Positions 54,240 through 54,720 of a stretch of 64,000 nucleotides of DNA are shown here, one piece after another. Position 1 is the first letter of the stretch. Every line of letters begins with the position of its first letter. The translations under genes were made by a program, and so were the position numbers. Origin of the DNA: Pseudomonas phage HHBS51_1; sequence record PQ287641.1. The stretch is one strand, 5' to 3'. The notes under the pieces were generated by a model that had not been told where the DNA came from, searched no databases, and saw only the letters and a list, made by a program, of their open reading frames with translations.

Positions 54240-54720
54240 GTGGCGGCCGAGTGAGATTCGAAAGCTATCTGGTAATTAGGATTGGTTGGCGATGTTGCAT
54301 TATGGAAAGTTCGTGGACGGTGGATCGAGGATTTTGTGTGGTGATTGGATGAATTGTGGAAAATCGCCGATTCTGACTGGATTTTTGGGGTCGGCCGCGT
54401 CGAGCTTACCGGTAATTTACGAAACCGGTAATTAGGGCCTAGCCTTAGTGCCGCGTGGGTTTGAAGGGCTTTAACGGATACTTTCCGGTTTCGGACGCAG
54501 CCGCAAAACTATTCTACAGCGAAAATCGATTGCCCAATCCTAATAGAAAAAATCTATCACGGACGTTACCTATCTTTAAAATTAATAAAATTAATAGTAA
54601 TTTGGTAATTTGGTATACTTTAGTATTTGAAAGCCTTGCGGCACTAAGCCTGTACACTTCCCGTCAAGTTTCCGATTCCGCTCAACTCGCGGCAGGGTCG
54701 CCGGAAACTTCCGGACTTCC
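54240..54720. repeat. non-coding module B, homologue of module A: GGTAATT(T/A)G iterons, inverted-repeat arms (54441-54455 / 54637-54651), ~180-bp AT-rich core, 16-mer CCCGTCAAGTTTCCGA (54660-54675)
   Basis: Iteron-like copies at about 54269, 54409, 54424 and 54597-54614 (tandem). Arm sequences differ from those of A only by paired, compensatory changes. GGACGTTACC half-site at 54561-54570. No credible ORF; ORF 54455..54937 is low-complexity. Confidence 0.6.

Follow-up and report, generated by a model that had tools for sequence, protein, structure and literature searches.

The DNA analysed here (the window, 64,000 nucleotides from Pseudomonas phage HHBS51_1, record PQ287641.1) is a nearly complete genome of a Pbunavirus, a PB1-like phage of Pseudomonas aeruginosa, and shares about 97% identity with phage 14-1. 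A 12-kb piece around the locus described below is 95-98% identical to sortsol, 14-1, PE1 and many other phages. The window is so close to these relatives that experimental results published for 14-1, JG024 and E217 can be placed on it base by base, with position 48000 of the window corresponding to about 52,682 in 14-1. The packaging end, the transcription starts and the identity of terS that are given here come from published data mapped onto the window in this way.

The locus follows an operon for replication proteins that includes genes for a RepB-type primase and a VapE/D5-type helicase (Table 1). A first-pass annotation, made from the letters of the DNA, had described these proteins as an AEP primase-polymerase and a D5/VirE-type helicase, and the Pfam matches bear out both descriptions. 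The C-terminal 254 amino acids of the helicase have no significant match in Pfam, the best ones (E 0.085 and 0.22) falling below the curated cut-offs. The second gene of the operon (49314-50540) is present in the window as two overlapping ORFs, 49427-50149 and 49962-50540; it is a single 434-amino-acid gene in the 14-1 annotation and has shorter forms in relatives, and the split may reflect a frameshift or a variable region. The operon ends in an intrinsic terminator, a hairpin with a T-run that had been predicted at first pass; the JG024 paper and the records of 14-1, DP1 and KTN6 mark it as well.

Beyond the helicase gene lies a 965-nt non-coding gap (54165-55129) that holds a complex repeat region, referred to here as module B. 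The functional region of module B reaches 55129, which is past the limits of 54240-54720 first given to it. The next gene had been called a putative terS, and its product is nearly identical to the E217 small terminase of known structure. The gene for the large terminase, terL, lies about 7 kb beyond terS. A related region near 8.3 kb is referred to as module A.

Table 1. Features of modules A and B and of the genes and promoters around them (window coordinates)
Feature	Position	Strand	Basis or remark
Module A, paralogous uncut copy	8068-8445	+	aligns over about 370 nt with 54357-54715
GGTAATTTGG repeats in module A	8137, 8328, 8336, 8410(-)		repeat scan
Inverted-repeat arms of module A	8148-8169 / 8362-8383		
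TCGCGGCW boxes in module A	8156(-), 8368, 8426, 8484		
Promoter P014 of head protease operon, TTTACC-17-TATAAT	8515-8543, start about 8551	+	scan and 14-1 mapping
RepB-type primase	50830-52086	+	Pfam PF16793, E 1.7e-59
VapE/D5-type helicase	52425-54164	+	Pfam PF05272, E 1e-22
Intrinsic terminator of primase/helicase operon	54190-54218	+	8-bp GC-rich stem and T-run (hairpin 54190-54209)
Left half of module B, variable, unpackaged side	54221-54505	+	alignment of 14 Pbunaviruses
GGTAATTTGG copies in left half of module B	54271-54280, 54411-54420, 54427-54436	+	repeat scan
Inverted repeat, left arm (AGCCTTAGTGCCGCG...)	54441-54465	+	25 nt, 80% complementary to 54627-54651
Packaging-series initiation end (probable pac cut)	54522-54532, centre 54527, between GAAAATC and GATTG	+	JG024 reads and record starts
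AT-rich core	54536-54626		78% AT; 85% over 54571-54630; nearly invariant in 14 genomes
Sigma70 promoter P040, TTAATA-17-TATACT	54591-54619, start 54630	+	consensus scan and 14-1 ONT-cappable-seq
Tandem GGTAATTTGG repeats	54596-54613	+	overlap P040 promoter
Inverted repeat, right arm	54627-54651	+	P040 transcript begins at the arm's fourth base
Transcribed terS leader	54630-55129	+	TU045, composition, near-invariance
17-mer TCCCGTCAAGTTTCCGA	54659-54675	+	identical in module A at 8391-8407
TCGCGGCA boxes, two and a third	54687-54694, 54731-54738; 55048-55055	+	first two within 54687-54738
Proximal terS promoter P041, TAGACG-18-TACAAT	55002-55031, start 55038	+	scan and 14-1 mapping
terS (small terminase)	55130-55699	+	99% identity over 189 aa, full length, with PDB 7UXE (E217 small terminase)
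terL (large terminase)	62618-64000, runs off window	+	syntenic PE1 gene (14116-15498) annotated, matched by coordinate offset

The description of the locus as a module of repeats and AT-rich DNA holds. Allowing at most one mismatch, the 10-mer GGTAATTTGG has 10 matches in the 64 kb compared with about 2.2 expected, and none of 100 shuffled sequences reached 10. Four of these matches are in the 8.3-kb module, five are in the 54.4-kb module and one is at the start of terS, which makes the repeat specific to the modules and the terS start, and the core beside the repeats in module B is AT-rich, as had been claimed. The motif TCGCGGCW occurs 30 times in the whole window, where about 10 copies would be expected; modules A and B together hold a cluster of seven or eight, and the copies outside them are scattered through genes.

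An ORF at 54455-54937 within the gap is annotated as a protein in JG024 (gp77), E217 (gp77) and PE1. Across 14 genomes its variable sites are distributed over the three codon positions as 27/30/29, with no third-position excess, and the frame is interrupted by in-frame stops in DP1 and KTN6 and by a frameshift in one contig. The ORF does not code for protein and is probably an annotation artefact.

Transcription of terS begins inside module B. In the ONT-cappable-seq tables for 14-1 (supplement of bioRxiv 10.1101/2023.10.13.562163), promoter P040 is of the sigma70 type and starts transcription at 59399 on the plus strand, giving a unit (TU045) that runs to 60626 and covers gp76; promoter P041 starts a further unit, TU046, at 59807. 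The two starts map to 54630 and 55038 of the window. Mapped 5' ends, hexamers upstream of them and transcripts that cover terS identify a sigma70 promoter and a terS leader, and the presence of this promoter inside module B had been missed at first pass. That the stretch from 54630 to 55129 is leader explains the near-invariance of what is otherwise non-coding DNA. Its part from 54840 to 55129 varies hardly at all and is rich in C (42%) and poor in G (15.5%), a composition that resembles a Rho-loading site. Tandem duplications occur in this part in E217 (39 nt) and in one IMG/VR contig (36 nt), and similar CA-rich repeats stand at the equivalent place in Xanthomonas phage Carpasina and Serratia phage KKP 3709.

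An end of packaged DNA also maps inside module B. Among virion nanopore reads of JG024 longer than 30 kb, 36 of 161 start at 59,376 ± 5 (Ipoutcha et al., PMC10913387). This position, taken as published and carried over by alignment, corresponds exactly to 54527 of the window. The same study reported that coverage drops in the interval from 50 to 60 kb and that XbaI digestion gives a submolar fragment of about 15 kb, as a pac fragment would be, and it refuted by Sanger sequencing a 270-bp repeat called for JG024 by PhageTerm; its authors label the pac site putative and want confirmation by Southern analysis (PMC10913387). At least five GenBank records (PA8P1, BrSP1, 109, PAP8 and PaP1_EPu-2019) start at window positions 54527-54530, 600-603 nt upstream of terS; some of these start points were possibly copied from one another, so that they are not independent experiments in every case. 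Circularly permuted, headful-packaged genomes have been reported for the Pbunaviruses JG024, Banzai, R26 and SCUT-S1, and PhageTerm found no significant peak for Banzai. Packaging ends mapping elsewhere had been named at first pass as an outcome that would speak against module B, and the published JG024 ends fall within it. A preferred end of virion DNA is thus found at a site that is linked to the small-terminase gene, with terS starting 603 nt to the right of the cut.

Conservation of module B changes close to this end. In an alignment of 14 Pbunaviruses, the sequence left of about 54505 exists as two alleles with about 70% mutual identity, both of which keep the GGTAATTTGG copies, and conservation on the packaged side (54505-55129) is 94-100%. 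The junction between the two parts lies about 22 nt left of the cut, which is where a recombinogenic DNA end would be expected to leave it, and it may be the footprint of such an end. In the second allele, carried by JG024 and E217, the left arm of the inverted repeat is degraded. Since the arms of JG024 are poorly matched and its ends nevertheless fall at the same base, perfect pairing of the arms is unnecessary for cutting. The second B allele could have arisen by recent gene conversion with module A as donor, but this was rejected, both B alleles being 61-65% identical to A in the left half. A search of 596 Gb of genomes for the shared 17-mer gave 40 matches in unrelated taxa, compared with about 70 expected by chance, so no copies of the module were found in host or satellite DNA.

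The architecture of the locus recurs in other genera, and this parallel is as directly observed as the specificity of the repeats and the pattern of conservation. Homologues of TerS with 33-43% identity are present in phages of E. coli, Serratia, Pantoea, Xanthomonas and Aeromonas. The TerS of Wifcevirus, a genus of E. coli phages, is about 39% identical, and the terS gene of Wifcevirus Ro157lw is preceded by a gap of 858 nt that is built in the same manner and in which a different repeat, GATGATACG, and its variants stand on both sides of a very AT-rich core flanked by CTTGCCGCG on the left (GCCGCG) and CTTGCGGCA on the right (GCGGC). Wifcevirus genomes have long terminal repeats. Three ends lie inside the AT core, at 4145-4158 of sequence L016: the start of the Ro157lw record, the left end that PhageTerm predicts for Mansfield and the end of ECO71P1. 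In this genus, too, conservation breaks off about 65 nt left of the genome end. The right boundary of the 3.5-kb terminal repeat of Ro157lw lies in a 700-nt geneless gap (3035-3737 of sequence L018) that has no GATACG repeats. For Pantoea phage Kyle and Serratia phage KKP 3709, the record likewise begins 360-414 nt upstream of the terS homologue. The KKP 3709 record opens with AT-rich sequence; a C/A-rich leader with CAGCGGC boxes comes next, and after it a promoter and terS. In Wifcevirus, Carpasina and a Serratia phage, related GCGGC boxes stand past the AT core, and the linkage of the module to terS is kept in Wifcevirus, Myosmarvirus and Pantoea phage Kyle.

A second module is likewise present in Wifcevirus, where it lies upstream of the protease gene and where the repeat of that genus forms a perfect inverted repeat of 22 nt on the two sides of an AT core of 95 nt; it is intact in all 29 of the records inspected. 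As both genera have the two-module layout and their repeats differ, the layout is older than the repeat sequence. Carpasina seemingly lacks a second module.

We consider it probable that module B is the pac region of a headful-packaging Pbunavirus and that it is fused to the distal promoter and leader of terS. The first-pass annotation had weighed a replication origin against a packaging site: the pac half of that proposal is upheld by the virion ends at 54527, the record starts and the genome end of Wifcevirus, and the origin half gained no positive support. Late in infection, terS would be transcribed from both P040 and P041. Repeated boxes flanking the AT-rich core, for which GGTAATTTGG and the GCGGC-type motifs are the candidates, would recruit the terminase, with TerS as the putative reader of the repeats and with a core that is probably bendable and may be bent in the process. 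TerL would then make its first cut at 54527 ± 5, and headful packaging would proceed rightwards, terS end first, to yield a circularly permuted, terminally redundant population. Because the tandem repeats overlap P040, a factor bound to them probably regulates terS too, and terS may in this way be autoregulated. For JG024, the position of pac has been put forward in the literature before. We found no earlier account of the anatomy of this site, of its conservation in another genus with a swapped repeat or of an uncut paralogue.

That paralogue, module A, was noticed at first pass as a second copy 46 kb away, and it is a genuine relative of module B: within the alignment of about 370 nt, a 79-nt core is 80% identical (E 1.5e-14), and 46,289 nt separate the two modules. 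Conservation extends over the whole of module A (88-97% identity), which is intact in 294 of 298 records. A role as a secondary packaging site had been suggested for it, of which there is no sign, since none of the 298 records starts in module A and it is never a record end. The ONT-cappable-seq data for 14-1 place no transcription start in the core of module A, the nearest being that of P014; a phage-specific 'CTGGG' promoter at 8222-8230 was discarded on the same grounds, no start being mapped there in 14-1.

Module A has all the parts of module B and is uncut, which means that the shared architecture is insufficient for cleavage. This architecture may serve some other function that is common to A and B. 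One tentative proposal, which we regard as rather less than an even prospect, is that the modules form a conserved matched pair read by the same binder (TerS or another factor), B being the cleaved pac and A a non-cleaved site upstream of the protease-scaffold-capsid operon. The pair could couple the initiation of packaging to the expression of head genes or bring loci together on the concatemer; alternatively, both modules could be origins, one of which was co-opted by the terminase. That the pair is kept in two genera whose repeats (GGTAATTTGG versus GATGATACG) have fully diverged argues for selection on the arrangement itself.

It is also conceivable, if very unlikely, that both modules are upstream control regions of late morphogenesis operons (terS in one case and protease-scaffold-capsid in the other) that are bound by a DNA-binding protein, cleavage at B being secondary. 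In Pbunavirus and Wifcevirus alike, a morphogenesis operon lies downstream of each module, with a sigma70 promoter past the module. In the window these promoters are P040 and P041 ahead of terS and P014 ahead of the protease gene, and the tandem repeats overlap P040. The modules also share a 90-nt block that contains the identical 17-mer and that forms the start of a transcript in B and not in A, so its conservation must act at the level of DNA. No regulator of this kind is known, however, and no transcription start is mapped within the core of module A. The spacing differs as well, the P014 start being about 170 nt past the right arm of A (8383 to 8551) and the P041 start about 390 nt past that of B (54651 to 55038), whereas the P040 start is inside the arm. 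Nine ORFs separate the module from terS in Carpasina.

A further function that might be shared by the two modules is that of a structured non-coding RNA in which the inverted-repeat arms form a long-range stem. The arms of A and B show differences that look compensatory, with G.U wobbles on the plus strand, one G-C to A-T double change is found in module A of Nemo, and module A folds with a z-score of -9. This fold is equally well a property of DNA, because module A is a strong palindrome at the DNA level (z = -9.0) in which both strands fold about equally, as RNA or as DNA, with z-scores of -5.1 to -6.7. Module B folds no better than its shuffles (z -0.6 to -2.2), and in its second allele the arms are mismatched. 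The sole start mapped in B is the fourth base of the right arm; the P040 transcript therefore begins in that arm and the left arm is absent from it. A search of Rfam gave no match, and a tRNA search found none. With no Rfam match, a fold in B that is indistinguishable from shuffles and a transcript that lacks the left arm, the RNA explanation is close to refuted.

The gene order in other genera bears on whether module B is an origin. The module adjoins the helicase gene in Pbunavirus and Carpasinavirus and adjoins terS in Pbunavirus and Wifcevirus. In Carpasina, which represents Carpasinavirus, the module comes after the helicase gene and is separated from terS by nine small ORFs. The DNA upstream of the Wifcevirus module consists, for at least 7 kb, of small ORFs that include no helicase gene. 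As an arbiter between origin and pac, gene adjacency in these genera ends in a tie. Because adjacency to the helicase gene is not conserved, it cannot decide the matter; what decides it is the genome end. The first-pass argument for an origin, that the module is placed after the helicase gene, is accordingly uninformative.

It is unlikely that module B, and perhaps module A too, is an iteron-type origin, either alone or alongside a pac function, in which an initiator such as the VapE/D5-type helicase binds the repeats and melts the AT core. The case for it consists of anatomy and of the position after the helicase gene. The anatomy fits, with specific repeats, a core that is 78% AT and a flanking inverted repeat, and repeated candidate protein-binding sites do stand beside an AT-rich element, as at iteron origins. 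Module A and the second module of Wifcevirus are strong palindromes around an AT core, and such a palindrome is found in origins that use an SF3 helicase and in HSV oriS and oriL. The primase/helicase operon of Pbunavirus and of Carpasinavirus leads directly into the module, and origins that come in two copies are known, SPP1 oriL/oriR and P4 ori/crr being examples. A uniform function other than cleavage would explain why the uncut copy is kept, and the authors of the SCUT-S1 study raised the possibility of an origin as well.

Several observations speak against an origin. The minima of cumulative GC skew are at about 38.7 and 48.8 kb, with no extremum at 8.3 or 54.4 kb, both in our own profile and in the Banzai paper; this evidence is weak since skew in phages also tracks the direction of transcription. 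Neither module is at a switch in gene orientation, the Wifcevirus module is preceded by the helicase-free stretch of small ORFs mentioned above, and Carpasina seemingly has no second copy. The initiator that had been proposed, a winged-helix protein encoded at 48518-49303 by the first gene of the replication operon, finds no support. This protein has no Pfam match even at E 10 and belongs to a PHROG family of unknown function, with only 5 relatives among 1.8 billion representative proteins and almost none outside the genus. Its AlphaFold model, of moderate confidence (pLDDT 70.7, from a 5-sequence alignment), consists of a small beta-barrel and a helical domain, for which the best matches in the PDB are Tudor/SH3-like (E >= 0.07) and none is a winged helix. 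An added origin role besides pac is possible at low probability, and pac remains the preferred reading of module B.

How small terminases recognize viral DNA is still unsettled. The structure of E217 TerS has been solved and its binding to DNA was not detected: a review (PMC9611059) describes the purified protein as showing no appreciable DNA binding in vitro, an outcome that led the E217 authors to suggest T4-like, pac-free packaging in these phages and that counts against a pac in module B. A defined cut that is tied to a conserved repeat architecture beside terS offers a concrete DNA substrate for this solved protein. Pbunaviruses are widely used in therapy, and a defined pac bears on the risk of transduction and on the design of synthetic genomes. 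The conservation of an uncut second copy in phages of both Pseudomonas and E. coli is a small puzzle.

Several known systems resemble module B in part. In SPP1, which packages by headful, the pac region (pacL-pacC-pacR) coincides with the promoter and 5' end of the small-terminase gene and is cleaved between two stretches that bind protein and contain repeated boxes; no uncut paralogous copy of pac is known in this phage. The SPP1 site (see also the review PMC9611059) and module B are alike in headful packaging, in repeated boxes (candidates in module B) around the cut and in their location at the small-terminase promoter. The two have no homology in sequence or in TerS, however, and binding of TerS to module B is putative. 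The pac site of phage P1 has a central cleavage zone with short repeated elements on both sides, and flanking repeats around a cleavage zone are common to it and module B. The P1 repeats are Dam-methylated hexamers inside pacA, whereas module B is intergenic, overlaps a promoter and has 10-mers and GCGGC boxes. The cos site of lambda (cosN and the R sites of cosB, near Nu1) shares with module B the order of cut, boxes and small-terminase gene, and the GCGGC-type boxes of module B are on the packaged side between the cut and terS, as in the lambda layout. Lambda differs in having cohesive ends and unit-length genomes, while Pbunavirus genomes are reported to be permuted and packaged by headful.

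Iteron-type origins include oriL and oriR of SPP1, ori and crr of P4, and the SaPI ori downstream of pri-rep. They have in common with module B the repeats and AT-rich core, a position after a gene for a D5/VapE-type helicase and occurrence in two copies; module B differs in that a genome end and the terS promoter map inside it. For T4, the 'twin-ring pac synapsis' model, as given in the review (PMC9611059), involves a pair of related sequences in gene 16 and gene 19, which are proposed to be bound by the small terminase. Modules A and B are likewise a related pair at separate loci. A defined pac cut is absent from T4, whereas module B is cut at a defined base and module A is not; the two copies, each of about 370 nt, are 46 kb apart.
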